From the NCBI GenBank assembly GCA_963667785.2, contig CAXXMU010000002.1, positions 320,001 through 384,000 on the forward strand: a stretch of 64,000 nucleotides of DNA, in the 5' to 3' direction. The notes beneath the pieces were generated by a model, which was not told the DNA's origin, made no database searches, and was given only the letters and a program-made list of their open reading frames with translations. Position numbers and translations under genes: made by a program. Position 1 is the stretch's first letter. Every line of letters starts with the position of its first letter. This document shows positions 29,217-50,934 of the stretch, in pieces. Origin of the DNA: Alphaproteobacteria bacterium. Its GTDB lineage: Bacteria; Pseudomonadota; Alphaproteobacteria; UBA828.

Positions 29217-29290
29217 TGGGGCGTAGCCAAGCGGTAAGGCAACGGGTTTTGGTCCCGTGATCCCAGGTTCGAATCCTGGCGCCCCAGCCA
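29217..29290 (+). tRNA. tRNA-Gln(TTG)
   Basis: TGGGGCG/CGCCCCA acceptor stem, ACGGG-TTTTGGT-CCCGT anticodon arm, GGTTCGAATCC T-loop, encoded CCA. Confidence 0.97.
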
Positions 29291-33833: not shown

Positions 33834-33978
33834 CGCGTTTCCGCTTCACACGGAAACGCGCTCGCTCTTTGTCGCTCACGGCAGCCGGCCTTCAGCCGGC
33901 GCCTCCGCGAGGGCGCCGCATGCGCGGCGGGCCGCAGTCGCGGCCTGTCGCGTGTCCGCCAAAAGCGGACACGCGCTA
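33831..33978 (-). repeat. Dispersed multi-hairpin repeat, copy B, filling the gap between two convergent genes
   Basis: Reverse complement matches 28850-28992; both flanking TAG stop codons abut its terminal hairpins. Confidence 0.8.
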
Positions 33979-34665
33979 AATCACCAGGCGGTAGCCGCCG
34001 CCCTCGGTGACCAGCAGGCGGGGATCGGAGGGCTCCGGCTCGATCTTCTGCCGCAGCCGGTAGATGTGGGTTTCCAGCGTGTGGGTGGCGACGTTGGCGT
34101 TGTAGCCCCACACCTCGCTCAGCAGCACGTCGCGGGCGATCGCCCGGTCGCGCGCCCGGTAGAGGTACTTGAGGATCGCCGCCTCCTTCTCGGTGAGCCT
34201 GATCTTGCCGGTGCCGTTCGGCCGGATCAGCAGCTTCGACGCCGGCCTGAAGGTGTACTGGCCGATGGTGAAGGTCGCGTCCTCGCTGTGCTCGTGCTGG
34301 CGAAGCTGGGCGCGGATGCGCGCGAGCAGCGCGCCGAGGCGGAAGGGCTTGGTGACGTAGTCGTTGGCGCCGGAATCGAGGCCGAGGATGGTGTCGGCCT
34401 CGCTGTCGGCGGCGGTCAGCATGATGATCGGCACGGCGATCCCGCTCCGGCGCACGAGCTTGCAGACCTCCCGGCCATCCATGTCGGGCAGCCCGATGTC
34501 CAGCAGGATCAGGTCGAAGCCCCCGCCCTTGACCGCTTCCAGCGCCTCCCGGCCGGTGGCCGCCTCGCTCGCCGCGAACTCCTCGTACATGTGGAGCTGC
34601 TCGGCCAAGGACCGGCGCAGCGCCTGGTCGTCGTCGACGATGAGGATGGTCTTGCGGGCGCTCAC
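33976..34665 (-). CDS. OmpR-family response regulator
   Basis: ILIVDDD, LLDIGLPDMDG, DYVTKPF, LETHIYRLRQKIE, GGYRL. Confidence 0.93.
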   Translation of the reverse strand: MSARKTILIVDDDQALRRSLAEQLHMYEEFAASEAATGREALEAVKGGGFDLILLDIGLPDMDGREVCKLVRRSGIAVPIIMLTAADSEADTILGLDSGANDYVTKPFRLGALLARIRAQLRQHEHSEDATFTIGQYTFRPASKLLIRPNGTGKIRLTEKEAAILKYLYRARDRAIARDVLLSEVWGYNANVATHTLETHIYRLRQKIEPEPSDPRLLVTEGGGYRLVI

Positions 34666-34839: not shown

Positions 34840-35724
34840 ATGAAAGCGCTCCCCGCAACGCTTCTTGCGATCGCACTCGCGTCGACCCTTGCCGCCTGCG
34901 GGGGCGGGGGCAAGCGAGCGCCCAGCATCGAGGAAATCCGGGAGCTGACCGGCCTGTCCGCGCCGGCCGAGACGCCGGGGGCCCAGCGCGTGCGAGCGCC
35001 GGACATCGAAGCGCGCGCCGATTCCCTGATCCTGTCCACGGTACACGGGGAGACGAGCCTCGCCGAGGTTCCCACTTTTCGATTGGAGTCACGATGCAGC
35101 GGAACCCGGTGCACGATATCCGAGTCGAGCATCGGCCTCTCAGACACCATAGAGCTGTCCGACCTCGAGCCCGTGGAAGGCGCCGCCGACGCGATCGGTA
35201 CCAGGTACGGCATCACCCTGATGTCGCAGACCGCGGAGCTGATGGACGCGAGATTCGTTTCGTTCGGCGCGTGGATGGAGCACGGCGCATTCGCGGTCCA
35301 GACCGAGGACGGCACGCTTGAAGGGACCAGGATCAGCGCCCGCTACGCAGCGGCCGGGGGAGACCTCACGGGAGCGGCGCCGGCCGGGAGCGCAACCTGG
35401 CGCGGCCTCATGGTCGGAACGCCGGCCACGGGGAGCAGCCGCGGCGACCGGCTGCAGGGTATTGCGGCCCTGAACTACGACATGAATGCCGGCGGCGGGC
35501 TCGACGTCGCCTTCAGCAGCATCACGAACATCGAGCGCGGAACGGCGCACTCGACGGCCACCGTGATCTTCGCCGACGTGCCGATCGGGTCGGACGGGAC
35601 GTTCGAGACCGGCTTGGCCGGCAACCGCATCCAGGGCGGCTTCTACGGCCCCGGCCACGCCGAGGCGGCGGGCATCTTCGAGCAGTCGAACATCGTCGGC
35701 GCGTTCGGGGCGACGCTCCAGTAG
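34840..35724 (+). CDS. Lipoprotein with TbpB-like C-terminal beta-barrel
   Basis: Lipobox LAAC; GSATWRGLMVG and IQGGFYGPGHAEAAGIF...GAFGA barrel motifs. Confidence 0.72.
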   Translation: MKALPATLLAIALASTLAACGGGGKRAPSIEEIRELTGLSAPAETPGAQRVRAPDIEARADSLILSTVHGETSLAEVPTFRLESRCSGTRCTISESSIGLSDTIELSDLEPVEGAADAIGTRYGITLMSQTAELMDARFVSFGAWMEHGAFAVQTEDGTLEGTRISARYAAAGGDLTGAAPAGSATWRGLMVGTPATGSSRGDRLQGIAALNYDMNAGGGLDVAFSSITNIERGTAHSTATVIFADVPIGSDGTFETGLAGNRIQGGFYGPGHAEAAGIFEQSNIVGAFGATLQ

Positions 35725-35797
35725 GAAGGGGGCCGTACGCCGGTTGTCGGGATGGCAACAGGGGGCGGCGCGAGCCCCTGGACCGAAGGGCGCAAGA

Positions 35798-35823
35798 GAA
35801 AACTCCGGACGTCCGGGGCTTTC
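35798..35823. terminator. Putative bidirectional intrinsic terminator
   Basis: GAAAACTCCGGAC/GTCCGGGGCTTTC imperfect palindrome with A/T ends. Confidence 0.5.
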
Positions 35824-35856
35824 TGGACCTCTGCGGGAACCCGCGGTCTACCGGAA

Positions 35857-35870
35857 TGGTGGAGGCGGGG
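35857..35870 (-). other. Possible att site: tRNA/tmRNA 3'-end fragment CCCCGCCTCCACCA
   Basis: Minus strand reads CGCCTCCACCA, followed by a terminator-like hairpin; an AT-rich stretch lies on the island side. Confidence 0.4.
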
Positions 35871-36291
35871 TCTGCCAAGAAATGCACGCAACATAGTGAT
35901 ATAGAGTTCTATTCTTAGATATCGGTTCGCTCGCCCCCATAGTCGTGCCCACGCTGGAGGCGAGCAGAGGCGCAACCCGCAACGGTGGGTTCTACAATGA
36001 AATCTTATGGGTGCTATCAGCATGATGTCTTGGACGCTATATGATCGAATTGCATAGATTGCGTCTTGTCTGGAGTCGTACCGGCCCCGTCGGTACCGCG
36101 ACCTTCCCGAAGTTGGAGGCACAGGCATGGAGATTCGCGGCAGGTGGGAGCGCGAAGGGGCGCGCATTCGCGCCGCCGCAGGAGCCCTCGTGATGCCGGC
36201 GGGCGGGCGCGCGACGTTGCCGGCGGGGCCTCTCGGGCATCCCGCGACATGGGATCGGTCCCCCCGGTCCGCCTGACGGGAATCGACGTCG

Positions 36292-37452
36292 ATGACTTCG
36301 GGATCGAGCATACCGGCGGGTTCTTCGACGCCGCCCGTGTTCGTGACCGGTTCGGCCGGGCATGTCGGCGCCAACCTCGTGCGCCGGCTGCTCGACGAGG
36401 GCGTGCCGGTCCGGGTGCTGCTGAGACACGGCGACAACAACGAGGGCCTGGAGGGTCTCGAGGTCGAGCGCGCCTACGGCGACATTCGCGATCTGGATGA
36501 CACCAGGCGGGCGATCGCGGGGTGTCGGGGCGTCTATCACTGCGCGGCCTACGTCTCGACCATCGCAGGCAACCGCGCCCATCGCCGCGACCTGTTCGAG
36601 TGCAACGTTCTCGGCACCCGCAACGTGCTGCAGGCGGCGCGGGAGGCGGAGGCCGGCCGGGTGGTCGTGACGGGCTCGTTCAGCGCGGTCGGATACGACC
36701 TGGACGATCCGTCCGCTCCCAGCAACGAGACCATGCAGTTCTATCCCATGGAGCGCACGATGCCCTACGAGCGCAGCAAGTCGCTCGTCGAGCAGGAGTG
36801 CTGGCGCGCGGCGGCAACGGGACAGGACGTGGTGGTCGCAACCTGTTGCGCGGTGGTGGGGGGCGCCGACTTTCTCCCCTCGCGGCTGGGAAGAACCCTG
36901 TGCGACTACACCAACGGCAAGCTCCGTGCCTATGTCGATGGCGGGTTCGAGTTCGTCGCGGCCCGCGACATCGTCGAGGGGCACCTGCTCTGCATGCGCC
37001 ACGGCCGCTCGGGCGAGAAGTACATCTTCAGCACAGAGTACAAGACCATCTCGGATATCCTGGATCTCTTCGAGGAGGTCTCGGGCGTCCCGCGGCCGCG
37101 CCGGCGCATGCCGACCCGCCTCATGCTCGTCTTTTCGGAAATCGCGAGCTTCTATCTGAGCCGGGTCCACCCGGGCTTTCCCCAGCGCTTCACGCCCGGC
37201 GCCATCCGCCTGTTGCAAAAGCGCCGGCACGCCGACATCGGCAAGGCGAAGCGGGAGCTCGGCTATCGGCCGACCGGCCTCCGCGCCGCGGTGCACGAGG
37301 CCTACGCGTTCCACTACGGCCGCGACAAGATCGCGAACCCGCACGCGAAGCGCCCGCGCGAGGACGACGCGAGGCACCGTGTCGCGTCAGAGGAGGGCGA
37401 TCCCGCGCCGGACCAGGGCATGCGGATGATGGCAGGCGGGAGCGCGACATGA
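36292..37452 (+). CDS. NAD(P)-dependent 3-beta-HSD/epimerase family protein, SdmB-like sterol C-4 demethylation reductase/decarboxylase
   Basis: VTGSAGHVG, YERSK extended-SDR motifs; ATGA overlap with the Rieske gene; sterol gene context. Confidence 0.72.
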   Translation: MTSGSSIPAGSSTPPVFVTGSAGHVGANLVRRLLDEGVPVRVLLRHGDNNEGLEGLEVERAYGDIRDLDDTRRAIAGCRGVYHCAAYVSTIAGNRAHRRDLFECNVLGTRNVLQAAREAEAGRVVVTGSFSAVGYDLDDPSAPSNETMQFYPMERTMPYERSKSLVEQECWRAAATGQDVVVATCCAVVGGADFLPSRLGRTLCDYTNGKLRAYVDGGFEFVAARDIVEGHLLCMRHGRSGEKYIFSTEYKTISDILDLFEEVSGVPRPRRRMPTRLMLVFSEIASFYLSRVHPGFPQRFTPGAIRLLQKRRHADIGKAKRELGYRPTGLRAAVHEAYAFHYGRDKIANPHAKRPREDDARHRVASEEGDPAPDQGMRMMAGGSAT

Positions 37453-38546
37453 AGGCGGCGCTACGCGAACCGCCCGGCTTCGAGGATGCCGGCAACCTGC
37501 GCCAGCAGGCGCGCGCCGCGGGCATGGACCCGAATTACTGGTATCCGGTCGAGGAGGTGCGCCGGATCAAGCCGGAGACGGTGGTCGAGGTCGTTTTCTG
37601 GAAGCGCTCCATCGCGCTCTTTCGCGGAAGGGACGGCACCTTCCAGGCGGTCGAGGATCGCTGCGCGCATCGCCAGCTCAAGCTCTCCCTCGGCGACGTG
37701 CAGGGATGCCGGCTGGTCTGCGCCTATCATGGCTGGGAGTACGGCGGGGAGGGGCGTCCCGCCGGGGTGCCCCACGACCCCGAGGGGCGAAGCTTTCCGA
37801 AACTCGCGCTCAAGACCTACCCGGTGAAGGTCCGCTACGGTCTGATCTGGCTCTTCCCGGGGGATCCGGCGCTGGCGGAGGTACGCCGGATCCCGGATAT
37901 TCCCGAGCTCGAGGGACGCGGCCGCTGGGCCTGCGTGCCGCTCTGCTTCACGTGGTCGGCTCACCACTCGATGGTGATCGACAACGTGAGCGACTTCACC
38001 CACGCACATCTGCACCGCCGCTACCGGCCCTTCGACGGGGCCACCCTCACCCGCTGCGAGACCCTCGGCGACAACGTGCATCTCGCCTACGACACGCACG
38101 TCGGGCGCGGGCGTATCTCCGGACTCTTCGTCGATCATCGGCGGCTCGATACCAACCGCATGGAGCTCTGCTACGAGTACCCCTACCAGTGGTCGAACAC
38201 CGACGACGCGATCAAGCACTGGCTCTTCGTGCTGCCGGTCGATGAGCGCACCAGCCGGGTGTTCTTCCTGTTCTACTTCAAGTCTCTGAAGGTTCCGTTG
38301 CTGCCCGTGCGCATTCCCCGCTTCGCCATGACCGCGGTGATGAAGGTCTCCAACCGCCTGCTCATCGCGCCCCTGCTCACCCAGGACCAGTTCGCGCTGG
38401 AGGCGGAGCAGGAGGGTTACGAGAAACACTGGGAGGCCCGTCCCGTCGAGTTCAATCCGGTGGTCAAGGCCTTTCAGAAGGTGACCGTGCGCAAGTGGCA
38501 GGAGCATCTGGCGCGCGAGACGGAGGCCGGCGATGCCGCCGCCTGA
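37449..38546 (+). CDS. Rieske non-heme iron oxygenase, SdmA-like sterol C-4 methyl oxidase
   Basis: CAH...CAYHGW Rieske ligands; DNVSDFTHAHLH mononuclear iron motif; sterol gene context. Confidence 0.75.
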   Translation: MKAALREPPGFEDAGNLRQQARAAGMDPNYWYPVEEVRRIKPETVVEVVFWKRSIALFRGRDGTFQAVEDRCAHRQLKLSLGDVQGCRLVCAYHGWEYGGEGRPAGVPHDPEGRSFPKLALKTYPVKVRYGLIWLFPGDPALAEVRRIPDIPELEGRGRWACVPLCFTWSAHHSMVIDNVSDFTHAHLHRRYRPFDGATLTRCETLGDNVHLAYDTHVGRGRISGLFVDHRRLDTNRMELCYEYPYQWSNTDDAIKHWLFVLPVDERTSRVFFLFYFKSLKVPLLPVRIPRFAMTAVMKVSNRLLIAPLLTQDQFALEAEQEGYEKHWEARPVEFNPVVKAFQKVTVRKWQEHLARETEAGDAAA

Positions 38547-39633
38547 AGCGCTCGACCTCTCGTCGGCGCTCTCGGGCGAGACCCTGCTCGAGGCCGCGGC
38601 GATGGTGCTGGGGTTCATCGCCCTCCTTTTCGTGACGTCGCTGATCCTGCCAGGGCGCCGCATCACGGGCCCGGATGCCGACGGGAACGAGCGCGTCTAC
38701 AAGCTCAACGGCCTCGCGCTCTTTGTCATCACCTTGCTCGTTGCGGGCCTCGCCCAGGGCTTCGGCTGGTTCTCCCTCTCGGTGCTGCATACCCACCTGC
38801 TCGCCCTCTTCGTCGTGGCGAACGGATTCGCGTTCGCTTTCTCCGGCTGGCTCTACCTGCGCGGGGTGCTCAGGCCCCGTTCGGAGTCCGGGTCCTGGCG
38901 GGACTTTTTCGACGGGGTGGATGCCGCTCCGTACTGGCTCGGGCTGGATATCAAGCTCTTCAGCTACTGCCCCTCCCTCATCGGCCTGGCGCTCTTCAAC
39001 GCATCGTTTGCCGCCGTGCAGTACGAGACCTACGGCGAGCTGACCCTGGCGATGATGCTCTATCAGACCTTCACGTTCCTGTACGTGCTCAACTACTTCC
39101 AGTTCGAGCAGGGGATGATCCATACCTGGGACATCGTCCGCGAGCGCTTCGGCTGGAATCTGGTCTGGGGCGACTACGTGCTGGTGCCCTTCTTCTACTG
39201 TCTCCCCGGCTGGTGGCTGGTCCACGCGCCGGAGCCGCTGTCGCCGGCCGCCGCCGCCGGGATCGTCGTGCTCTTCCTGTTCGGCTTCTGGATCTTCCGT
39301 GGTTCCAACCAGCAGAAGCACCGCTTCAAGCGCGACCCCACTGTCAAGATCTGGGGGCAACCCGCCAAGACCCTGGACGGGCGCCTCCTCGTCTCCGGCT
39401 TCTGGGGCATCGGGCGGCACCTCAACTATACGGGTGAGATCTGCGTCTACCTCACTTTCGCCCTCACCACCGGGTTTGTCTCCTGGGCTCCGTTCCTGTT
39501 GCCGGCGTGGGTCGCGGGTCTGCTGTGGCACCGTTCGATACGCGACGAGCGCCGCTGCCGCGCCAAGTATGGCGAGCTGTGGGAGCGCTACACGCAGAAG
39601 GCCCGCTTCGCGATGCTGCCCTTCATCCACTGA
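38533..39633 (+). CDS. ERG4/ERG24/DHCR7-family sterol reductase (probably Delta14)
   Basis: YKLNG, DIVRERFGWNLVWGD, SNQQKHRFK, LLVSGFWGIGRHLNYTGE, RDERRCRAKYG. Confidence 0.9.
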   Translation: MPPPEALDLSSALSGETLLEAAAMVLGFIALLFVTSLILPGRRITGPDADGNERVYKLNGLALFVITLLVAGLAQGFGWFSLSVLHTHLLALFVVANGFAFAFSGWLYLRGVLRPRSESGSWRDFFDGVDAAPYWLGLDIKLFSYCPSLIGLALFNASFAAVQYETYGELTLAMMLYQTFTFLYVLNYFQFEQGMIHTWDIVRERFGWNLVWGDYVLVPFFYCLPGWWLVHAPEPLSPAAAAGIVVLFLFGFWIFRGSNQQKHRFKRDPTVKIWGQPAKTLDGRLLVSGFWGIGRHLNYTGEICVYLTFALTTGFVSWAPFLLPAWVAGLLWHRSIRDERRCRAKYGELWERYTQKARFAMLPFIH

Positions 39634-39641
39634 GAACGGAG

Positions 39642-41051
39642 ATGGCCAACCCATCCCATAGCATGGCGACCCTGCCTTCGGCGGATCTCCCACCGCGGGC
39701 GGACGAGACACTTCCCGAGCTCGCGGGCAGGTGGCCGCTGCTCGGCCATCTGCCCGAGTTCCAGAGGGATCCGGTCGCCATGTTGAGCCGCGGCTGGCGC
39801 GAGCATGGCGAGCTCTTCCGTTTCCGGCTCGGGACCCGCGCGTTCGTTCTCTTCACCGGGCCCCAGGCCCACGACTTCTATTTCAGGACGCCCGAGGAGC
39901 AGCTGAACGCCAAGGCCGTCTATCGCTTCACCGTCCCCATCTTCGGACGCGGCGTGGCCTACGACACCTCCCCCGACATCATGGCGGAACAGCTGGGCTT
40001 TCTCTTTCCGGCGCTCCGCGAAGCGGCCATGCGCAGGTTCGCCCTCATCATGTTCGAGGAAGCGTGGCAGTTCGCCGACGCCCTCGGCGACGATGGGGAA
40101 ATCGATCTGCCGCACGCGATGAACGAGCTCACGGTCAAGATCGCGAGCCGCTGCCTGATCGGACAGGAAGTCCGCGATCGGGTGGACACCGGCTTTGCCG
40201 AGACCTACCACGACCTGCAGAAGGGCATTAACACCCTGGGATTCTTCCTGCCCAATCTTCCCGTCGCGTCGCATCGAAAGCGCGACAGGGCCCGGCGACG
40301 GGTGGCGGAGCTCTTCGGGCAGATCATGGCGGCGCGCCGGGACGCCGGGGCCAGCCCCGACGACTTCATGCAGACGCTCATGGACGCCCGGTACAAGAAC
40401 GGCCACTCTCTGAGCGACGACGAGATCACAGGGATCCTGCTGACGGTGCTGTTCGCGGGCCAGCACACCAGCGCGGTGCTCGCGACCTGGACCGGTCTGG
40501 AGCTTTTCAGGGCGCCATCCTACCTGGCGCGGGTGAGAGACGAGGCAGAGGACGTCTACCGCGAAGCGGGGTCCATGAGCATCGACAGCCTCCAGCGCCA
40601 GCCGGCTCTGGAGAACGCCGTCCGCGAGTGCGAGCGGCTGCACCCGCCGCTGATACTGCTGGTCCGAAAGGTGCTCGAGCCCCTGCGCTATGGAGAGCGC
40701 GTCGTGCCTGCCGGCACCATGGCCATGGTGTCGCCGGCGGTCTCGCACCGCCTGCCCCACATCTTCGCCGACCCGGAGCGCTTCTTCCCCGACCGCTTCG
40801 CGTCTCCCGCCTGCGAGGACAAGCAACACCGCTACGCCCTGATCGGCTTCGGCGGCGGCAAGCACGCGTGCATGGGGAAGAATTTCGCGTACATGCAGCT
40901 CAAGGCGATCTGGACCGTTCTGCTCGATCGCTTCGAGTTCTCCCCCAGCGGCGCCTTTCCGCGTCCGAACTACGGTAGCTGGGTGACGGGACCCGAGAGA
41001 CCGTGCCGCGTCCGCTACCGTCGTCGCTCGCAGCCGAGCGTCTTCCGATGA
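39642..41051 (+). CDS. cyp51: Cytochrome P450 CYP51-type sterol 14-alpha-demethylase
   Basis: YRFTVPIFGRGVAYD, LFAGQHTS I-helix, ExxR, GFGGGKHACMG heme motif. Confidence 0.9.
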   Translation: MANPSHSMATLPSADLPPRADETLPELAGRWPLLGHLPEFQRDPVAMLSRGWREHGELFRFRLGTRAFVLFTGPQAHDFYFRTPEEQLNAKAVYRFTVPIFGRGVAYDTSPDIMAEQLGFLFPALREAAMRRFALIMFEEAWQFADALGDDGEIDLPHAMNELTVKIASRCLIGQEVRDRVDTGFAETYHDLQKGINTLGFFLPNLPVASHRKRDRARRRVAELFGQIMAARRDAGASPDDFMQTLMDARYKNGHSLSDDEITGILLTVLFAGQHTSAVLATWTGLELFRAPSYLARVRDEAEDVYREAGSMSIDSLQRQPALENAVRECERLHPPLILLVRKVLEPLRYGERVVPAGTMAMVSPAVSHRLPHIFADPERFFPDRFASPACEDKQHRYALIGFGGGKHACMGKNFAYMQLKAIWTVLLDRFEFSPSGAFPRPNYGSWVTGPERPCRVRYRRRSQPSVFR

Positions 41052-44000
41052 GCGGCGCCGCGTCGCGGCGTTACGACGTGGCCATTGTCGGCGCGGGGCC
41101 GGTGGGGAGCCTGTGCGCGCTCGCTCACGCACGGAAGGGCGCCCGGGTGGCCCTGCTGGAAGCGAACCCCAAGGCGTCCGGGCGCCTGGCGGGCGAATGG
41201 CTGCATCCGCCTGGCGTGCGGATACTGCAGCACTTCGGGATCGGGCTCGACACCCTGCCTCGCAGCACCGCGGGCAAGGGATTCGTGGTATTTCCCGATG
41301 ACGGCTCGGAGCCGATCGTCCTTCCCTACTTGAACGGCTCGCAGGGTCTGGCCTGCGAACATGCGCTGCTCGTCTCGAAGCTGCGGGAAGCCGCGGAGAA
41401 CGAGACGGATGTGGACTTCTTCACCCACGCGCGGGTGAGTGCGGTCGAAGACGGGCGGTTGGCCTATACCAACAACGGCACGGTTCACTCCGTCGACGCC
41501 GAGCGGATCATCGGCGCCGACGGGCGGGCGTCGGTCGTGCGCCAGTCCCTGGGCCTGTCGACGGAGCCGGTTCACTGCTCGCGGATGCTGGGGATCACCG
41601 TGAGCGACGTGAGCCTGCCCTTCGAGGGTCACGGGCACGTGCTGCTCGGCGGGCCGGGGCCGATTCTCGCATACGGTCTGGCAAACGATTGCGTCCGGAT
41701 CATCGTCGACGTTCCGCTGGACCGTTGGACACGCCAGGATCGGGTCGGCTTCCTGACGGAATCCTATGCAACGCTGCTGCCGGAGGCTCTCATGCCGGCG
41801 TTCGTCGACGCGGTGCGCGCGGGGCAATTCCACGTTGCGGCCAATCAGTTGCGGCCGCGCGTCACGTACGGCACCCCGCGTCGCGTGCTGATCGGCGACG
41901 CGGCCGGGCACTACCATCCGATGACGGCGGTCGGCATGACCCTCGGCTTTGGCGATGCGCTTGCCCTCGCCGAGGGCGGGAGCTTTCGCGACTTCGCCGC
42001 CGGGCGTTTCCGGGCGACCCGCGTGCCGGAGATGCTCGCCATGGGGCTCTACGAGGTCTTTGCCGATCATCGGGCCGAGGCGGTGGCGATGAGACACGCG
42101 GTCTACTGGGGATTGCGGGCGAACTCCGATTACCGGGAGCGGACAACGCGGATTCTCGCCTGCGAAGACCGATCCGCGTTCGTCATGGGTCTCGCGTTCT
42201 TCGGAACGGCGGCCCGGGCGGCGGTCGTGGAGATTCCGCTCTCCTTCCGCCGGTTCGCGCCGCGTCAGGGCCTGAAGATCTTCGGTGCGCTCACCGTTCG
42301 TCTCTTGTGGCTCCTGCGCTGGGCTCTGCAGCTGCGCCAGTCGCGACGCCAGGGCGGGCAGAATGACGAGCGGGCCCTGGACAGCCTGTCCCGCGCGCTT
42401 CTGCACTCCATGCCGCCGAGGCTCGACGCGTCCGGGCAAGGCCGGCCGAAGGACGCCGAGGCGGCCGACGCCGGTCCGGCCTTGAGGAGCGCGACCGCGC
42501 GCCTCCTGAGTCTCCAGGGCGAGGACGGTGGCTGGGAAGGCGAGATGGTCTGGTGCCCCATGCTCACCGCGCAATACGTGCTGCTGCACCACATCATCGG
42601 GCGGCCGCTCGAGCCCGGCCGGCGCCGGCGCGTGCTGCGCTCCTTCGAACGAACTCGTCTCGAAGGCGGCTCATGGGGCCTGCACGAGCATTCTACGCCC
42701 CACCTCTTCGTCACCGCCCTGGTCTACGTCGCCGCCCGGCTGCTCGGGGTCGAGCGGGACGATCCCCTGGTCGAGCCGGCCCGGCGCTTCATTGAGGCCG
42801 AGGGGATCGTGGGCATTCCCAGCTGGGGGAAGTTCTGGCTGGCGCTCCTGAACCTCTACGACTGGCGCGGGGTCAACGCCGTTCTGCCGGAGCTGTGGAG
42901 CCTGCCGCGGCGCTTGCCCCTGCACCCCTCGAATTGGTACTGCCACACCCGGCTCATCTACATGGCCATGGCGGCGATCTACCCGCACCGCTTCCAGGCG
43001 CCCGTCACGCCCTCGATCGCGGCGCTGCGGGAGGAGCTGTACCCCCAGGGATTTGCCGAGGCGGATTTCTCCGCCGCCCGCGACCGCCTGCGGGAGGCCG
43101 ACCTCTACGCACGGCCGAGCGTGTGGCTCAAGGTTGGATACAAGATTGCGCGCGTGTTCGATCGGCTCCACGGCAAGCGCCTGCGCGCCCGTTGCACGGA
43201 GGCGATCGTCAGGCAGATCAGATGGGAGCTGCGAACCACCAGCCATACGAGCATCTCTCCGGTGAGCGGCCTCCTCAACATGCTTGCGCTCTGGCTGCGC
43301 GATCCGGACGATGCCGACCTCCACCGGGCGCTCGCGAAGCTGGACGACTGGATCTGGGAAGACGAGGACGAGGGCGCGCGCGTCGTCGGCGCGAGAAGCG
43401 CCTCGTGGGACAGCGGCTTCGCGCTGCAGGCGCTGGCGGCGGTGCCCGCGTTCGACGGGGTGGGGGACGCGCTGCGGCGCGGCGCCGACTTCCTGCTCGG
43501 GGAGCAGATCGCCGCCAGCTTCGACGGGTTTCGCGAGGCCTATCGTACCGACCCCAGGGGCGGCTGGTGCTTTGCCGGGGGGTGGCACGGCTGGCCGGTG
43601 AGCGACTGCACCGCGGAAGCGGTGCTCGGACTTCACGCCGCCGGTCGTGGCGCCACGCACGCGGGCGCGTTGCGCGATGCGGTCGGGTTCATGCTGCGCT
43701 GCCAGAACCGCGACGGCGGATTCGGCAGCTACGAGGCGCGGCGCTCGGCGTTCGGTCTGGAGTGGATGAATCCGGCCGAGATGTTCGGCGACTCGATGAC
43801 CGAGCAATCCTACGTCGAGTGCACCGCGTCCTGCCTCGCGGCGCTCGCCGCCTGCGTGGAGGAGGTTCCGCACATCGCGGACGGAGCGGTGACGGGCGCG
43901 ATCGCTCGGGGCGATGCCTGGCTGCGCCGGACTCAGGCGAGCGACGGCTCGTGGCGCGGCGTGTGGGGGGTTCAGTTCATCTACGGCACGCTCTTCGGGG

Positions 44001-44473
44001 TCAGGGGTCTTCTCGCCGCCGGGGCCGGCCCCGGCGATCCGGCGCTGCGCTCGGCCTGCCGCTGGCTGCTGGAGCGCCAGCGGGCAGATGGGGGATGGGG
44101 CGAGCACCACAGCGGATGCCTGAGCGGCCGATACGTCCCGCACGAGGAAAGCCAGGTCATCCAGACCGCGTGGGCGTTGATCGCGCTGCTCGAGGCGGGC
44201 GAATCGAACTGGACCGCGATTGCGCGGGGCGCCCGCTTCCTGCTCGACACGCTGGACGGGGACGGGACATGGCCCAAGCAGGACATGGTGGGCGTGTTCT
44301 TCCGAACGGCGCTCCTGGACTACGTGCTCTATCGACAGTATTTCCCGCTGCACGCGCTGGCCCTCTACGAGCAGCGCCGCCGAGAGCGGCTGGGCCTCGC
44401 CGCCCCCGCCGCCTGCACCACCGCCGCACCGCCGCCCCCGCCCGAAGCGGCTGCCGCCTGTTCGCTTTCCTGA
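41048..44473 (+). CDS. Squalene epoxidase-oxidosqualene cyclase fusion protein (1141 aa)
   Basis: N-half: GAGPVG, GEWLHPPG, GADG, GDAAGHYHPMTAVGMT; C-half: QW repeats, YCHTR, VSDCTAE, NPAEMFGD, YVECT. Confidence 0.9.
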   Translation: MSGAASRRYDVAIVGAGPVGSLCALAHARKGARVALLEANPKASGRLAGEWLHPPGVRILQHFGIGLDTLPRSTAGKGFVVFPDDGSEPIVLPYLNGSQGLACEHALLVSKLREAAENETDVDFFTHARVSAVEDGRLAYTNNGTVHSVDAERIIGADGRASVVRQSLGLSTEPVHCSRMLGITVSDVSLPFEGHGHVLLGGPGPILAYGLANDCVRIIVDVPLDRWTRQDRVGFLTESYATLLPEALMPAFVDAVRAGQFHVAANQLRPRVTYGTPRRVLIGDAAGHYHPMTAVGMTLGFGDALALAEGGSFRDFAAGRFRATRVPEMLAMGLYEVFADHRAEAVAMRHAVYWGLRANSDYRERTTRILACEDRSAFVMGLAFFGTAARAAVVEIPLSFRRFAPRQGLKIFGALTVRLLWLLRWALQLRQSRRQGGQNDERALDSLSRALLHSMPPRLDASGQGRPKDAEAADAGPALRSATARLLSLQGEDGGWEGEMVWCPMLTAQYVLLHHIIGRPLEPGRRRRVLRSFERTRLEGGSWGLHEHSTPHLFVTALVYVAARLLGVERDDPLVEPARRFIEAEGIVGIPSWGKFWLALLNLYDWRGVNAVLPELWSLPRRLPLHPSNWYCHTRLIYMAMAAIYPHRFQAPVTPSIAALREELYPQGFAEADFSAARDRLREADLYARPSVWLKVGYKIARVFDRLHGKRLRARCTEAIVRQIRWELRTTSHTSISPVSGLLNMLALWLRDPDDADLHRALAKLDDWIWEDEDEGARVVGARSASWDSGFALQALAAVPAFDGVGDALRRGADFLLGEQIAASFDGFREAYRTDPRGGWCFAGGWHGWPVSDCTAEAVLGLHAAGRGATHAGALRDAVGFMLRCQNRDGGFGSYEARRSAFGLEWMNPAEMFGDSMTEQSYVECTASCLAALAACVEEVPHIADGAVTGAIARGDAWLRRTQASDGSWRGVWGVQFIYGTLFGVRGLLAAGAGPGDPALRSACRWLLERQRADGGWGEHHSGCLSGRYVPHEESQVIQTAWALIALLEAGESNWTAIARGARFLLDTLDGDGTWPKQDMVGVFFRTALLDYVLYRQYFPLHALALYEQRRRERLGLAAPAACTTAAPPPPPEAAAACSLS

Positions 44474-44520
44474 GCGTCGGCGGCCTCGCGCAGGGCCGCG
44501 CGGCCGAAAGTCCGCGTCGT

Positions 44521-45552
44521 TCAGTCGCGCGAGTGCCCGGGCTTGCGGGCCAGGAAATAGAACATCGGCGTGAAGACGCCGGACCTGCCGCCGTCCACCA
44601 GCGCGTCCGCCCCCGCATTCAGGATCGTGCTGACCGCGCGGGCGCCCTCGGGAAAGAGCCGCAGCCTCTCGCCGACCCGCAAGGTCAGATTGGTCAGCGC
44701 GCGGCCGAGTGGCGTGCGCGGAATGCTCGAAAGGTTGAGGTCACGGCCCTGCAAGGCACGGTACCAGGGCATCGCCGGGTCCGCTTCGGGCGCGCGGTCG
44801 CGCGCTTCCAGCAGATCGAACCCCGCCCTTTGCAATGCGGCGGAAACCTCCGACGTGGTCGCGATATCCGGCAGCCCATTGCCGATCATGATGTCGTTCT
44901 TGATTCGCAGGTGCTCCGCGTTGGCGGGATCGAATTTCTCGGTGAGGCACCACTCGTAGCCCGCGAAACAGGCCCCCGGACGCAGCACGCGCAGAACCTC
45001 GCGGAACGCGCCCGTCTTGTCGGGCGCGTGGGGCATGGACTCGATCGCGATGGCAGCATCGTAGCGGCCGTCTTCGTCGGGAATCTGCATGTAATCGCCG
45101 TGAATGAAGCGGCACAACGATTCCACATCGCGGGTGTGAAGTTTGGCGCGCTCGATCTGATAGGCGTTATTGTTGATGCCGACAAAGCTGGCCCCGGTTC
45201 GGCGCGCCAGATTGCCCATCGGCCCGCCGACCCCGCATCCGACATCGAGCACGTGCATACCCGGCTTCAGGGACAGCTCTTCAGCCAGAAAATGCTGGTG
45301 CCGGAGCAGCGATGCCTTGAAGCTCTCGCCCCGCCTTCGGGGAGCGAAGTGAAAGGACTGACCCCAGCCGAACTCGTAGAAGTCGGTGACCAGGTCGTAG
45401 TAGCGATTCACGAAGGAGCGATAATGCTCCTTCCTGCGCTCCGGGCCGGCGTCGTAGATTTCGGTGTATTCGTCGACGGTGGGCTTCACCTCGTCCGGGG
45501 CAAGGTCCGCGAGGGTGCGCGGTTTCGATCGCGTGGCGGAAGGACGATTCAT
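44521..45552 (-). CDS. smt: Sterol C-24 methyltransferase (SMT/ERG6 family)
   Basis: YYDLVTDFYEFGWGQSFHFA (region I), LDVGCGVGGP, NNNAYQ, IESMPHAP, YEWCLT, FTPMFYFLARKP. Confidence 0.9.
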   Translation of the reverse strand: MNRPSATRSKPRTLADLAPDEVKPTVDEYTEIYDAGPERRKEHYRSFVNRYYDLVTDFYEFGWGQSFHFAPRRRGESFKASLLRHQHFLAEELSLKPGMHVLDVGCGVGGPMGNLARRTGASFVGINNNAYQIERAKLHTRDVESLCRFIHGDYMQIPDEDGRYDAAIAIESMPHAPDKTGAFREVLRVLRPGACFAGYEWCLTEKFDPANAEHLRIKNDIMIGNGLPDIATTSEVSAALQRAGFDLLEARDRAPEADPAMPWYRALQGRDLNLSSIPRTPLGRALTNLTLRVGERLRLFPEGARAVSTILNAGADALVDGGRSGVFTPMFYFLARKPGHSRD

Positions 45553-45740
45553 CGGCACATTCTGCCAGAGCCGCACGTCGTCCCCAAGACCGGAATATTG
45601 CGGGAGGTCCCAACACCTCGCTTCTTGACCCAGATATCGACGGCGTCCAGAGCATGGCGCCTTTGTATACGGCGCCGGACTCTCCGCAGGGTACAATGCG
45701 ACGCGCCGCAACGCTGCAGCGTCTGAGAGGACCGGATCAC

Positions 45741-46475
45741 ATGCCAGAAGAGCAGGCGGACGGGGCCCCTTCCGAACCCGGCGCGCGCCGGGTTCGGTTG
45801 GCGATCCCGCCGATCGTGTTTACGGGGCTTGTCATCGCGAGTCTGACCGTGGCCGGTATCGGGGCGCGCTACGGCGTTCGCGGCGATTTCGACGTTATCC
45901 ATGGACTTCTGATCCTCTTCTTTTCCGTCAATCTGGTGATCTGCTATTGGGAAATCTGCCTGTTCTTCAGGCGCGACTACATCGAGAAGCGCGCCGAATA
46001 CTGGCATGAACGCCGGCAGAAAACAGGCCGAACGTCGGGCATCGAGTTCCTTACCGGACCTGTTCCGTTGAGGCGAATACTATCCTTGACGACATGGGCG
46101 GACGTCTGGGCCACGTATTCGCAGTTTGACACTTCGTACACCGACCGGCGCACATATGGTTACAACGTGGACATCGCCAACGGCTTCGTAACGCCGGTGC
46201 CGATGCTGATTCTTTTCGCCGCCTTCACCGTCGACTTCCTGCCCGCCCTCGTCGCCGGCATCATCGGGGCGATGATGTTCTGGCAGTTGGCCTACGCGAC
46301 ATCGGTCTATTGGGTCAGCTTCTTCGTGGCCAAGCGGCAGAGCCGCATCCGCCGAAAGGACCTCTACATCTACATCTGGGCTCTGAACTGCCCGTGGGTG
46401 CTGTTCGCCCTGCTGGGACTCTACGTCTCGATTCGCCTGATCGTGAACGGCGACTACAGCGTTCTCGGCTATTGA
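45741..46475 (+). CDS. Membrane protein, EBP/EXPERA-like (candidate sterol Delta8-Delta7 isomerase)
   Basis: About 5 TM segments; WATYSQFDTSY and ALNCPW resemble EBP WxxYxxxDxRY and NxxW; adjacent to the sterol genes. Confidence 0.55.
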   Translation: MPEEQADGAPSEPGARRVRLAIPPIVFTGLVIASLTVAGIGARYGVRGDFDVIHGLLILFFSVNLVICYWEICLFFRRDYIEKRAEYWHERRQKTGRTSGIEFLTGPVPLRRILSLTTWADVWATYSQFDTSYTDRRTYGYNVDIANGFVTPVPMLILFAAFTVDFLPALVAGIIGAMMFWQLAYATSVYWVSFFVAKRQSRIRRKDLYIYIWALNCPWVLFALLGLYVSIRLIVNGDYSVLGY

Positions 46476-46646
46476 TCGCGGCATTTCCAGATCGCCTTCG
46501 GCAAGGCAGACGGCGACACGTCCGGGCACGGCGCCGCCCCGCGCCGCCCGTTCCGCCGCCAGCCGAAGGGGCCTCGTCGTCGAACCTTTCCGCGCTCGAA
46601 GCTCAGACACCCCGCTGCTCGTCTTCCAGGAAAGTCGTCATAGCTC

Positions 46647-47018
46647 ATGCAGAAGACAGCCGTCATAGACGGTCTCCAGTACGCCAACTGGTCGGACAAG
46701 GTATTTCGACAGATGGGCGACAGACATGTCGTCGCCATCCATGTCACCATCTGCTACCACGAGAACTTTCGTGAAACCGTCGCGAACATTGCCGCCTGGA
46801 GCCGGCGTTTCGATCAGTTCTCCGAACTGATTTTCCCGCTCCACTCGGCGGACGATGTCGACAGGGCGATGAGGGAGGAACGCACGGCCATCGTGTTCGG
46901 CTGCCAGAACTGCTCGCCGATCGAGAACGACATCGATCTCGTTCGCATATGCCGGCCGCTCGCCCACGGCAGCTGGCTGCGCTTCTTCCGGGAGTCGTTC
47001 AGCCCGCAGGGCTCGTGA
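46647..47018 (+). pseudogene. Membrane (renal-type, M19) dipeptidase with a large in-frame internal deletion
   Basis: N-terminal IDGLQYANWS...FGCQNCSPIENDI is fused directly to a C-terminal-like GSWLRFFRESF; only 123 aa. Confidence 0.7.
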
Positions 47019-48727
47019 TGGGCTGTCCGGCCGATGACCGTGCGATCGCCCCGCTGCGCGCGCCCGAGCACGTCATGCGGCTGGCGCGCATGGGCGCGTC
47101 GTTCCAGACACGCCTGAGCTTCATGCGCCAGTTGATCCGCCGCATGCGAAGGGAGCGGTGGCGGTTCGAGCGCCTCCGTTTCGACCTCGACGCACGGGGA
47201 TACGGCACCGCCGTTTACGCGGCCCACGGCCCGCAGCGGACCTACTCGCTCATCGCGTACACGCACGAGATCCGTCCGGAGCAGCGCACCGACCGCGTGA
47301 TCGCGGAGGCCTGGGATGCCACGTTCTCGTTCTTCGACGGCGTGCCGGACGATGCGGATATCGAACGGTTGCGCGCCAACACGCCGAGGCAGGAGGACGG
47401 CCGCTTCACCTCCCGCGAGCTCACGCTGGCCCGCGCCAACAAGAGCATGCGCCTGTTCGAGCATGTCGTCGAAAGCCTCGCCGCCGGCCGACAGCCCGAC
47501 GCCGCCCGGCTGGCCGAGGTCGGCTACCTGATGCGCACGACGGCCGTCTATGGGAGCGGCAAGTTCGGTTGCGCCGACCGCGCCAAGATTGCGGACCGGA
47601 CCGAGATGCGCGGACCCTTCCAGGCCGAAATGCTCACGGTCTATCTGATCCGTTGGCTGAGCATCGACCTGGTCAACCACGTGGCGCGCGGCCGGGGCGG
47701 CGCGCGGGCCGCTCCTCTGAATGCCGACTACGCGCGCTATCTGGGCATCGGCAACGCCACCGGGCTGGGAATGGCTCCCTTCCTCATCAAGCACCCGGTG
47801 CTCATCAACAATTGGGTCCTGGCGCGGGAGACCGCGCTCGCGCGGGTGCGAGCGCTGCCGTCCGCGACCGCCGGTCAGGTCGCCGCCTTCATGGCCCTGC
47901 TGGACCGCGCCCGCCGCTTCGTCGGCGAGTGGAACGTCGACGACGAAGCCCAGACGGCGCGCATTCGCACGCTGCGTGCCGAGCTCGGCGAGCTGGAGAG
48001 CTGGTGCGAGGCCGGGCTTCGTCGCCCCCATCCGTGGGACGCGATGTACCGCCACGCCGAGGAAGCCTTCTCCGCCGAGGGGCAGGAGTTCGCCGTCTCG
48101 CTGCTGCTCGAGCAGCAGGGCCCGGTCGTGGACGCGCTCGGCGACGAGATGAGCGCCCCGGAGCCGCACAGGCTCAGGGCCGAGATGTCGCTGGGCGAGC
48201 TGCTCGGCATCATCGATGCGCATTATGGCTGGGCGTTGGCGACCGACTACTCGCGGCCCGAAGCCGTGCAGCGCTTCTGGTATTACTCCGAGGAGAAGCT
48301 CGAGCCTCGGGTGGGCGACCGCCACACCGAGCCCGGCGCCGACCTCGAAATGCCGATCGCGATCGCCCGGGACGTGAGCCGGCTCAGGGACCGGCTTCTC
48401 GAATACGACACGGCGCTGACGGTCGCCGACTTTCTCGTCGCCGCGCCGGAGTACCGCAGCATCGTCTGGCGGGTGCAGATGGCCTCGGACTGTCCCTACG
48501 GCGAGATCCGCGACAATCTGCTCGGCGCCGGCCAGCGCCCGGTCGACATCCTGCGCTTCAAGCTCTCGTTTTTCGGCGTCGCCAAGTTCGATCCGAAGTC
48601 CGATCTGTGGACGCGGGTCAACATGTATCAGGGCGCGCCGCTGCCGCAGGAGATCGCCGATGCGCGCGAGACCGAATGGGTGTTTCCGACAAGGCCCGCG
48701 GCACTGTCGGCCGAGGCGATGCCATGA
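47018..48727 (+). CDS. Conserved hypothetical protein
   Basis: Long ORF with strong codon bias (RTDRVIAEAWD, YLMRTTAVYGSGKFG, GIGNATGLGMAPF); coupled to both neighbours. Confidence 0.75.
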   Translation: MGCPADDRAIAPLRAPEHVMRLARMGASFQTRLSFMRQLIRRMRRERWRFERLRFDLDARGYGTAVYAAHGPQRTYSLIAYTHEIRPEQRTDRVIAEAWDATFSFFDGVPDDADIERLRANTPRQEDGRFTSRELTLARANKSMRLFEHVVESLAAGRQPDAARLAEVGYLMRTTAVYGSGKFGCADRAKIADRTEMRGPFQAEMLTVYLIRWLSIDLVNHVARGRGGARAAPLNADYARYLGIGNATGLGMAPFLIKHPVLINNWVLARETALARVRALPSATAGQVAAFMALLDRARRFVGEWNVDDEAQTARIRTLRAELGELESWCEAGLRRPHPWDAMYRHAEEAFSAEGQEFAVSLLLEQQGPVVDALGDEMSAPEPHRLRAEMSLGELLGIIDAHYGWALATDYSRPEAVQRFWYYSEEKLEPRVGDRHTEPGADLEMPIAIARDVSRLRDRLLEYDTALTVADFLVAAPEYRSIVWRVQMASDCPYGEIRDNLLGAGQRPVDILRFKLSFFGVAKFDPKSDLWTRVNMYQGAPLPQEIADARETEWVFPTRPAALSAEAMP

Positions 48728-49467
48728 GCGAGACGCTGACGCCTTTGTCTCTGAACGAGATCTGCTTCTACTTCACGCGGGCGGCGGTGGGTGCCGGTGC
48801 GCCGTTCGGGATCGGCGAGGACTTTGCGGAGGCGTCGAAGTCTCTGGCCTATCTGGGCTTCGATCCGGCCCAGGCTGCCGTGCCGGCTTTGCGCGGACTT
48901 AGCTGCGGCCTGAGCGGCACGTCGCTCTCGCTGCGCACTGCGGGGGATGCCATTCATGTCGGGAGCAGTGACGCTCCCATCCTGTCCGCGCTCTACGCCG
49001 GGCCGGTGGCCGCCGACCGGCTGTCGATCGAGGCGGGGTGCGGCAGGGAGCGGCATCTCCGACTCGACGACACGGACCAGCCGCTGCTGATCGTGGGGGC
49101 GATTGCTGCAGCGGGCATCGATAAAGCCCGGATCGCCCTGTCGTGGCCGTTGCGGAACGGCAGACGCGCCGTGGTCGAGCTGAACGGCGGCATCGCGACA
49201 ATCGCCGGCCTGTATTCCCGAAGCGTCGCATCGCTTGAGCCTGCACCGGTCGACATCCTCCTCAACGGCACGCCTCTCGAGATGGAGCCCGCGCGCACGG
49301 CGACGAGGAGTCTCGCGGAGGGCAGGTCCAAGTCAGTCCGCCACGGTGTCGACGTGGACGAGGTGGCAAGGTCGACGGTGCTGGCGTTCTTCGAAAAGTG
49401 TCTCGTGCCTGCCACCGATCGGTCCCGCGATGCCGGGGCCGGGGCCGGTCTCACCGACAACGACTGA
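48724..49467 (+). CDS. DUF3726-like protein
   Basis: SLNEI...RAAVGAG..FGIGED N-terminus; SRDAGAGAGLTDND C-terminus. Confidence 0.65.
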   Translation: MSETLTPLSLNEICFYFTRAAVGAGAPFGIGEDFAEASKSLAYLGFDPAQAAVPALRGLSCGLSGTSLSLRTAGDAIHVGSSDAPILSALYAGPVAADRLSIEAGCGRERHLRLDDTDQPLLIVGAIAAAGIDKARIALSWPLRNGRRAVVELNGGIATIAGLYSRSVASLEPAPVDILLNGTPLEMEPARTATRSLAEGRSKSVRHGVDVDEVARSTVLAFFEKCLVPATDRSRDAGAGAGLTDND

Positions 49468-49715
49468 GGCACCGTCACCCGACCCCGTACGGGGCCAGTC
49501 GGTGCGACGCCATGCTGGGCCTCTGCGGCAATGCGCCTCGCCTCCGGAATAATTCACATGAATCGAGAGAAACATGAGAACACGGTCGTTTCGGCGTCGC
49601 CGAGCGTCGTGTATTCCGCGCGGCCGAGGTGTACGAAACAGCGAGCCCGTGGCGCGGCCGCCGGTCAGCCCCTAGACTCAGTGTCGGCTGCAATCCGGCC
49701 GAAGGAGCGCCGCCG

Positions 49716-50603: not shown

Positions 50604-50695
50604 CCCAAGTTCCTCGCCACGGTCACGTCGGAGACCGCCCTGATGACCGAGAAGGGGTGGGAACCGCTGAACCATAGGCGGCACGAGAGAGTCCA

Positions 50696-50896
50696 GTGAG
50701 ATTGGTCGCCTGGAACTGCAACATGGCCTTGCATCGCAAGCTCGACGCGCTGCGGCGGCTGCGACCCGACGTGGCGGTGGTGAGCGAGTGTGCAGAACCC
50801 CAGGTAGTGGCCGAGCGGGCTGGCCTCGCTTCATCTCCGGCGCCTGCGGCGGATCTGGCCGACGGTGATAGTAGGGCGAAGCTCGTTTCCGGATAG
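50696..50896 (+). pseudogene. N-terminal fragment of an endonuclease/exonuclease/phosphatase family gene
   Basis: MRLVAWNCN...PDVAVVSEC is the first two EEP motifs; stop at 66 aa. Confidence 0.55.
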
Positions 50897-50934
50897 CTCA
50901 CTCGCATGCGACGGTTTGGTGACGGGAGGCAGCC

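Follow-up and report, generated by a model that had tools for sequence, protein, structure and literature searches.

The closest described relatives of the locus reported here are the clusters of steroid genes (CSGs) of sponge symbionts. According to the available portion of Kelly et al. (2022), CSGs occur in 115 of 537 metagenome-assembled genomes (MAGs) from Ircinia sponges, belonging to 10 phyla, and contain DFR-like, hypothetical, ERG24, CYP51, and LSS genes with SMT1/ERG6 or FDFT1 on the opposite strand; CSGs are drawn on the alphaproteobacterial clade, horizontal transfer is reported, and omega of three core genes is 0.13–0.26 (PMC9531527). Brown et al. (2023), in the text available, found sdmA and sdmB in such clusters, trimmed fused squalene monooxygenase/oxidosqualene cyclase homologs in the methods, and reported in vitro activity of sterol C-24 methyltransferases (SMTs) from sponge-symbiont clusters (PMC10070321). 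Here, we analyze a seven-gene sterol cassette (positions 36292–46475) in a 64,000-nt stretch of DNA (the window; G000:C2:320001-384000, within a 974-kb contig) from an alphaproteobacterial genome. Most probably, the region is a functional sterol-biosynthesis cassette of an alphaproteobacterial sponge symbiont, its catalytic steps being predicted from sequence.

The layout of CSGs is found in the cassette: ERG24, CYP51, and LSS homologs are adjacent, stand in this order, and all lie on the plus strand (38533–39633, 39642–41051, and 41048–44473), with a short-chain dehydrogenase/reductase (SDR) gene and a Rieske oxygenase gene on the same strand at the 5′ side and an SMT gene on the opposite strand at the 3′ end. 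The order and strands are those of the CSGs of Kelly et al., known from many phyla and reported to be horizontally transferred; in the available text of that study, the first two genes are not recognized as SdmB and SdmA, and the epoxidase fusion is not mentioned. In the study of Brown et al., as far as available, SMT is clustered with sdmA, sdmB, and oxidosqualene cyclase in symbionts of Aplysina aerophoba and in other uncultured bacteria, and the hypothesis is also that of de novo synthesis of side-chain-alkylated sterols by bacteria. An earlier reading of the window made from the sequence alone (the sequence-only reading) had seen the novelty in this combination of genes and this host. Neither is new, because the same arrangement was published for sponge-symbiont MAGs, Alphaproteobacteria included (available portions of PMC9531527 and PMC10070321). 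The cluster is thus a well-assembled further example of the published sponge-symbiont sterol clusters.

Methylococcus capsulatus, in the literature portions available, shares with the cassette SdmA/SdmB-type C-4 demethylation and CYP51; however, its CYP51 is fused to a ferredoxin, while CYP51 of the window has no ferredoxin domain. The cassette further differs from the Methylococcus set by an added SMT, by an isomerase candidate, and by the fusion of epoxidase and cyclase. Methylococcus has a soluble NTF2-type reductase, 8,14-Bsr, which yields the delta-8(14) sterols of methanotrophs (available portion of PMC13277303). Since the clustered reductase of the window is of the canonical membrane ERG24 type and not of this NTF2 type, a delta-8 rather than a delta-8(14) intermediate is expected.

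Cassette genes and predicted pathway

Seven open reading frames, all intact, were found between positions 36292 and 46475. The sequence-only reading had described five coupled genes for SDR, Rieske oxygenase, reductase, CYP51, and epoxidase-cyclase with a convergent SMT gene, and the coordinates, family matches, and start/stop overlaps agree with that description. The first gene (36292–37452, plus strand; 386 aa) encodes an SdmB-like NAD(P)-dependent SDR with Pfam Epimerase (116 bits) and 3Beta_HSD domains, for which NF052578 (SdmB, 295 bits) was the best NCBIfam match. The second (37449–38546, plus strand; 365 aa) encodes an SdmA-like Rieske oxygenase with Pfam Rieske and VanA_C domains; it scored 399 bits with NCBIfam NF052579 (4beta-methylsterol monooxygenase) and 33 bits with the next family. 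The product of the third gene (38533–39633, plus strand; 366 aa) is an ERG24-type sterol reductase (PF01222, ERG4_ERG24; 230 bits against a cut-off of 27), the best solved relative of which is delta(14)-sterol reductase 4quv (E 3.1e-67).

The fourth gene (39642–41051, plus strand; 469 aa from its ATG) encodes the sterol 14-alpha-demethylase CYP51. The top 56 listed PDB matches of this protein were all CYP51 (195–358 bits), the first non-CYP51 P450 scoring 137 bits; its best solved relative is 6mcw (E 6.6e-106), which we take to be the CYP51 of Methylococcus. The fifth gene (41048–44473, plus strand) encodes a squalene monooxygenase::oxidosqualene cyclase fusion of 1141 aa from the ATG at 41048, or 1156 aa from a GTG at 41003. 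Residues 24–406 comprise SE (PF08491; 84 bits, cut-off 20) and FAD_binding_3 (PF01494; 88 bits), and residues 495–1123 comprise SQHop_cyclase_N and SQHop_cyclase_C. The fusion protein matched human squalene monooxygenase (6c6n, E 8.7e-24) and human lanosterol synthase (1w6k, E 9.5e-127), passed TIGR01787 (496 bits, cut-off 323), and retained the VSDCTAE motif, the Asp of which is presumably the catalytic residue of the cyclase.

The gene for the methyltransferase SMT1 (44521–45552, minus strand; 343 aa; Sterol_MT_C 69.9 bits against a cut-off of 21.7, and a methyltransferase domain) is convergent with the fusion gene, from which 47 nt separate it. Divergent from it, behind a 188-nt spacer, lies the gene for a 244-aa multi-pass membrane protein, a candidate delta8-delta7 isomerase (45741–46475, plus strand).

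Start and stop codons overlap as ATGA at the sdmB/sdmA and cyp51/fusion junctions, the last 14 nt of sdmA lie within erg24, and an 8-nt gap separates erg24 from cyp51, the ATG of which is preceded by GGAG at a distance of 5–8 nt; the five upstream genes would be translated as one coupled unit. The coordinates of the sequence-only reading stood except for three starts, which lie later than those of the longest open reading frames: 39642 for cyp51, 45552 for SMT1, and 45741 for the last gene. At the position matching 45741, ATG was found in 21 of the 22 homologs and GTG in one. No sigma-70-like promoter was found upstream of the cluster, no conserved regulatory motif was found across the 64 upstream regions compared, terminator-like sites were no commoner than in shuffled sequences (8 vs. 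5.7 ± 2.5), and a scan with Rfam returned tRNA only.

Family assignments from Pfam, NCBIfam, and PDB support the pathway proposed earlier: squalene epoxidation, cyclization, C-14 demethylation and reduction, SdmAB-type C-4 demethylation, and C-24 methylation. Squalene would be made by HpnC, HpnD, and HpnE, whose genes lie at other places in the genome. The sequence-only reading had called for a search of the genome for squalene synthase or hpnCDE, and all three proteins scored over the curated NCBIfam equivalog cut-offs: HpnC barely (251.9 bits, cut-off 250.45), HpnD with 305.9 (278.6), and HpnE with 392.7 bits (283.05). Genes for HpnC and HpnD are arranged in tandem beside dxr (C2:245-247 kb), and that for HpnE is on contig C8. 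The fusion protein was the only cyclase found, and no squalene-hopene cyclase was found in the genome; therefore, squalene has no other obvious cyclase here, and sterols may have replaced hopanoids in this genome. Most of the relatives searched (G001–G040) carry a cyclase-domain match of about 30% identity and of a length like that of squalene-hopene cyclase.

The fused enzyme would epoxidize squalene and cyclize the product to a protosterol, one of the lanosterol type being likelier than cycloartenol. CYP51 would then take off the 14-alpha methyl group, and the ERG24-type reductase, to which we assign delta-14 regiospecificity by homology, would saturate the delta-14 bond to give a delta-8 sterol. 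SdmA and SdmB would take off one or both C-4 methyl groups, with SdmA oxidizing the methyl carbon and SdmB as its C-4 decarboxylase/3-ketoreductase partner. SdmAB pairs differ in this respect, that of Methylococcus removing one methyl and that of Calothrix both, while that of Enhygromyxa needs SdmC (available portion of PMC10202945). The genome contains one SdmAB pair, its other SdmB-like genes having 29–34% identity only.

A second ERG4/24 reductase is encoded at C1:508854-509990 (L011:5851-6990, minus strand); it is 32–35% identical to the clustered one and scored 126 bits with 4quv. Of the functions that the sequence-only reading did not see in the window, the squalene source and the second reductase are present in the genome. 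The gene of the second reductase adjoins genes for an old-yellow-enzyme-type flavoprotein and an SDR, and it was found in six of the eight cluster-bearing genomes of the genus and in three genomes without the cyclase.

SMT1 would carry out one or two rounds of C-24 methylation, from which C28 or C29 side chains, but probably not isopropyl, would result. Residues of SMTs were assigned in yeast numbering, anchored on the motifs printed in preprint 10.64898/2025.12.19.695621 with no yeast sequence aligned. SMT1 has Tyr81, Phe83, and Asn249, the last in the context I-G-N-G-L-P, and keeps all 25 residues conserved in functional SMTs, as counted from the printed motifs, with Trp286 shifted by one residue. 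In the available portion of the preprint, Gly249 is necessary, though not sufficient, for 24-isopropyl products, and a G249N mutant made C29 and no C30 sterols (10.64898/2025.12.19.695621). SMT1 thus lacks the glycine of the propylating bacterial SMTs and differs from the headline enzymes of Brown et al. (as available), which have Gly249 and make 24-isopropyl sterols. Because of Asn249 and the Gly249 rule, which makes the product class of SMT1 predictable, we expect 24-methyl, perhaps 24-ethyl, and not isopropyl products. Among 64 aligned SMTs from related loci, position 249 was Asn in 29, Asp in 23, and Gly in 3.

In fossil material, 24-alkyl steranes are interpreted as traces of eukaryotes, and 24-isopropylcholestane is taken to indicate sponges; the possibility of a bacterial source has already been raised (available portions of PMC10070321 and PMC9531527). 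Bacterial cassettes able to make such sterols would weaken that reading. With its 10.5 kb, intact genes, and identified squalene supply, the cassette described here is convenient for heterologous expression.

A second methyltransferase, SMT2, is encoded at C6:314043-315071 (L111:8040-9071, minus strand), approximately 440 bp from a tRNA-Asn gene. It contains Sterol_MT_C, is 45% identical to SMT1, and has Ile249 and, as departures from the Region I motif, Ser86 and Leu89. Its orthologs, with 63–90% identity, were found in seven other genomes of the genus, three of them without the cyclase. In three gammaproteobacterial loci (L038, L042, and L080), an SMT gene lies just downstream of the fusion gene and its product is 46–47% identical to SMT1.

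The 244-residue membrane protein

The sequence-only reading had called the last gene of the cassette EBP-like. The Pfam model of EBP did not bear this out, and no Pfam or NCBIfam match was obtained for the protein; a remote relation to EBP is indicated by profile-profile comparison. The comparison profile was built from a bacterial family, 27 sequences of which were aligned, starting from a protein of genome G085 that scored over the Pfam EBP cut-off; most listed relatives of that protein carry a precomputed PF05241 annotation, and several of the 27 aligned ones do not. In hhalign, the profile of the 244-aa family matched this EBP-family profile with a probability of 82.7–86% and E 5e-6 to 1e-5 over 127–128 columns. 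The score was 45.5, compared with 17.3 for the reversed profile and 10.3–18.0 for 20 column-shuffled profiles, and the control probabilities did not exceed 0.6%. The C-terminal 128 residues align to the EBP profile and the N-terminal half does not. Both profiles contain W-x2-Y-x3-D-x2-Y followed by an acidic residue some 11–14 positions on, Y-G-T-x2-Y/F, and N-x2-W in the last helix. In size and multi-pass membrane layout, the protein is similar to EBP/EXPERA proteins, including the one named by NCBI "emopamil-binding family protein" in Zavarzinia compransoris.

The family itself is well conserved: 22 close homologs had a mean column identity of 74%, with conserved Asn64, Trp70, Glu71, Trp119, Asp121, Trp123, Tyr126, Asp130, Tyr133, Asp144, Asn147, Asn216, and Trp219. 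Of 1.84 billion cluster representatives searched, 322 belonged to the family at E ≤ 1e-3. A second search returned 565 proteins, and the 120 listed ones had no Pfam domain and no name other than "hypothetical". Two of 56 diverse members reached the Pfam EBP model with E < 0.01. In a language-model atlas, 22 of the 30 nearest clusters belonged to a set with EBP in 20% of members, which we regard as a lead only.

The distribution of the gene speaks for a role in sterol metabolism. Within the genus, it was present in all eight genomes with the cluster and in one of the 13 others, and, among 401 evenly drawn genomes of the class, in exactly the three with an oxidosqualene cyclase; as two of these share a genus, they represent two independent lineages. 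By profile comparison, the 244-aa protein is probably a remote EXPERA/EBP relative, its distribution being linked to sterol synthesis, and it is a candidate delta8-delta7 sterol isomerase, which would shift the double bond of the delta-8 sterol to delta-7. The predicted delta-7 position of the product has this remote homolog as its only basis.

In the article texts available, supplements aside, no delta-8,7 isomerase is named for these clusters, the nearest being the "ERG2" of several CSGs of Kelly et al. In the genome studied here, the ERG2/sigma-1 family (PF04622) was not found by a weak search, which gave no signal in control genomes either; the gene adjacent to the methyltransferase gene is EXPERA-like instead. 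Pairing divergently with the SMT gene and belonging to a family that databases label "hypothetical", the 244-aa gene is a concrete candidate for the bacterial delta-8,7 isomerase step and the most useful new lead of this analysis. We propose tentatively, with doubt slightly outweighing confidence, that the protein founds an unrecognized sterol-linked bacterial branch of EXPERA/EBP and acts as the delta8-delta7 isomerase of sponge-symbiont cassettes. If this is true, it would let bacteria make delta-7, 24-alkylated sterols of the "eukaryotic" type.

Host genome, distribution, and alternative explanations

The genome assembly was 4.09 Mb in length and consisted of 14 contigs with a G+C content of about 70%; its completeness and contamination were estimated at 98% and 6.6%. 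The cluster lies 356–366 kb into the 974-kb contig, along which the G+C content is even. Contigs of run X3, obtained in a different study, bridge both cluster borders and have the same flanks as the window (record 25 spans 35658–36645 and record 29 spans 45213–48500). Continuity across 35.7–36.3 kb, which the sequence-only reading had named as a point to check, is thereby confirmed, and the contig is free of chimeric joins at the borders of the cluster. Identical pieces were also present in run X1, which may be the source sample and was left out of this evidence. An alphaproteobacterial host, as proposed earlier, agrees with the label "Alphaproteobacteria bacterium" of the same-genus genome G018, which holds locus L016, and with the position of the fusion protein in an alphaproteobacterial clade. 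As to the habitat, relatives are by their titles MAGs from sponges, and runs labeled as sponge metagenomes contain 21–33% of the sampled words of the cluster.

Parts of contigs C8 (50001–60000, L014) and C9 (1–9000, L015) share the order of a 176-aa gene, HpnE, an HpnD-like SQS_PSY gene, TrmFO, and a gene of about 960 aa, the HpnE copy on C9 being split. This duplicated order indicates assembly redundancy or a second strain, in agreement with the contamination estimate.

Species-representative genomes were scanned with the fusion protein, giving 369 relatives, of which the best 80 loci (65–91% identical) were compared. In 60 of the 80, the five genes keep their order and all share one strand, so the arrangement is not due to chance. 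Of these 80 loci, sdmB was present with an identity of at least 55% in 67, sdmA in 68, and erg24 in 67. SMT, with at least 55% identity, was present in 56, and in 33 it lies convergent to the fusion gene at a distance of no more than 1.5 kb; the 244-aa gene was found in 28 loci, in 15 of them beside SMT as here. Some of the misses are cuts at contig ends. The loci carry MAG labels of at least eight phyla, including Alpha- and Gammaproteobacteria, Nitrospirales, Binatia, Acidimicrobiia, Bryobacterales, Rhodothermales, Nitrospinaceae, Thermodesulfobacteriota, Porisulfidus, Rariloculaceae, Poriferihabitaceae, and "Spongia_Bin9", and the isolate names of many are styled like those of sponge-study MAGs.

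The fusion protein was far more similar between genomes than the housekeeping protein PurB: 72% vs. 49% identity for a Nitrospirales genome, 78% vs. 64% and 77% vs. 69% for two Alphaproteobacteria, and 91% vs. 86–87% within the genus. In a FastTree phylogeny of 81 fusion proteins, which is shallow, labels grouped by class (11 changes, compared with 35.8 on average after shuffling), and the window protein grouped with L016, L020, and L017 in the alphaproteobacterial clade with a support of 100. Within the genus, the fusion was present in 8 of 21 genomes. The cassette of 10.5 kb had 88–91% nucleotide identity to L016, L020, and L017, and this extended only from 36000 to about 46505; these three loci likewise have only the cassette in common with each other, and the flanks differ in every within-genus pair compared. 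The shared DNA begins 290 bp ahead of sdmB and stops shortly after the final stop codon. On the left it begins with a non-coding leader (36000–36291, plus strand), where blastn homology to L016 and L020 starts at 36000–36004 and which is kept among close relatives only, not across the 64 upstream regions; on the right, the stop codon of the last gene marks the end of homology.

To the left, synteny with three congeners (G002, G018, and G013) stops at 34694, behind an OmpR-type regulator, and did not resume within the 15 kb covered, so no simple insertion site was seen in same-genus genomes; 46500–49594 is unique to this genome within the genus. No direct or inverted k-mers of 9–12 nt common to both border zones and no transposase or integrase domains in the flanking open reading frames scanned were found, and the nearest tRNA gene is at 29217–29290. 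The cassette has probably moved between bacterial phyla inside sponges, and its position differs among genomes of one genus. The G+C content of third codon positions was rejected as a sign of foreign origin: the background from crude open reading frame calls was bimodal, and the cluster genes fell uninformatively at its 31st–65th percentile.

Several observations weigh against the sterol pathway as proposed. Both members of the clustered SdmAB pair score below the NCBIfam equivalog cut-off of 600 (399 bits for SdmA and 295 for SdmB); SdmA and SdmB are nevertheless the best-scoring families by a wide margin, the genes are adjacent and coupled, and by NCBI's rule their products are homologs of SdmA and SdmB and not equivalogs. 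Neither a ferredoxin nor a reductase partner for CYP51 or SdmA is encoded within the cluster. The fusion protein scored 747 bits with TIGR03463, below the cut-off of 851, and its residues at human lanosterol-synthase positions 381/449/453 are Ala/His/Val. The pattern at these positions is Thr/Cys/Val for lanosterol and Tyr/His/Ile for cycloartenol; we take Val as leaning toward lanosterol and His toward cycloartenol. Ala/His/Val fits neither pattern. The Pfam EBP model (PF05241) gave E 7.1 and 7.5 bits with the 244-aa protein against a cut-off of 25.7, and searches of PDB sequences yielded no match for its family, one profile giving chance-level hits only (E > 0.6) and another none. Contigs of two metatranscriptome runs of one study (X19 and X20) cover sdmB to SMT with approximately 91–95% identity; at this identity, they come from a relative. 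This RNA support is weak, as it consists of contigs of that relative and not of reads, and DNA carry-over is possible. The same runs gave no cover over most of 45.7–47 kb and low cover over the flanks, which is uninformative, since the source relatives have other flanks.

No convincing C-5 desaturase was found among the two FA_hydroxylase genes of the genome. The one at C6:149807-150880 (L012:4807-5883, plus strand) matches OlsE only weakly, with 46 bits against a cut-off of 475. Within the genus, it was found in seven of the eight genomes with the cluster and in three of the 13 others, which as kin are not independent, and it is a possible candidate for a sterol desaturase or oxidase. The second FA_hydroxylase gene does not co-occur with the cluster (two of eight cluster-bearing and five of 13 other genomes). 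Neither gene could be assigned as a C-5 desaturase.

Among other explanations, it is improbable that the genes mainly remodel sterols of the sponge host by methylation, reduction, and isomerization and do not serve de novo synthesis. Tailoring genes do occur in genomes of the genus without the fusion: the second ERG4/24 gene in G001, G006, and G019, SMT2 in G002, G006, and G019, and SMT1-like genes in G002, G009, and G013. Since such cyclase-less genomes carry SMT and ERG4/24 paralogs, some symbionts may re-tailor the sterols of their host. However, absence of the cyclase from G001, G006, G009, and G019 is unsure because these assemblies are fragmented or incomplete (62–96% complete, 160–640 contigs), and in the window an intact epoxidase-cyclase fusion is coupled to the tailoring genes, in a genome that has HpnCDE and no hopene cyclase to use squalene otherwise. 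If the cyclase instead formed a tetracycle or pentacycle that is unusual or not a sterol (parkeol or an arborinol-like compound), which is then tailored, this would fit the product-determining Ala/His/Val positions, which match none of the textbook patterns known to us, and the TIGR03463 score. Against it stand the strong match to human lanosterol synthase with VSDCTAE retained and the coupling to the cyclase of CYP51, delta-14 reductase, SdmAB, and an SMT with all conserved residues, enzymes which, to our knowledge, are known only on sterol substrates; we give this explanation very little credence.

We see equally small prospects for a recently acquired cluster that is silent or decaying and goes unused. 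All seven frames are open here with catalytic motifs retained, RNA libraries yielded contigs that cover a closely related cluster, and the published omega values of the three core genes (0.13–0.26; available portion of PMC9531527) argue against decay, although the fusion is patchy in the genus (8 of 21 genomes) and no promoter-like site was found. The fusion matches of four same-genus genomes contain in-frame stops (one TGA each in G005, G010, and G017, and one TGA and one TAG in G014), which may be frameshifts, assembly errors, or decay. That eukaryotic or other foreign DNA was joined to an alphaproteobacterial genome during assembly or binning is hardly credible: beyond the 6.6% contamination estimate and the flanks unique within the genus, which would allow it, the cluster lies deep in a long contig of even G+C content, its genes are intron-free, overlapping, and of the bacterial SdmAB type, and the X3 contigs carry the same flanks across both borders. 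De novo synthesis by a functional cassette accounts best for these observations.

Flanking genes and repeats

Immediately beyond the right border of the cassette (46647–47018, plus strand), 123 aa of an M19 membrane dipeptidase are encoded; this fragment covers profile positions 40–127 of 319 and probably represents a truncated gene. The 2.6 kb beyond it contain no recognizable gene and are unique within the genus. Further to the right are an NMT1/THI5-like gene (49594–50628) and a pyridoxal-phosphate-dependent decarboxylase-like gene (50864–52100), copies of which, 82–92% identical, stand at scattered non-syntenic sites in only some genomes of the genus; the decarboxylase-like gene is present in up to three copies per genome, and the region is variable.

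A strongly self-pairing intergenic repeat of about 150 bp with inverted ends and an RNA folding energy of −93.5 kcal/mol was found in the window at 33831–33980 and 28850–28993. It looks like a repetitive extragenic palindromic or miniature inverted-repeat transposable element; the genome contains 45 copies of at least 120 nt, and many copies are present in every genome of the genus.

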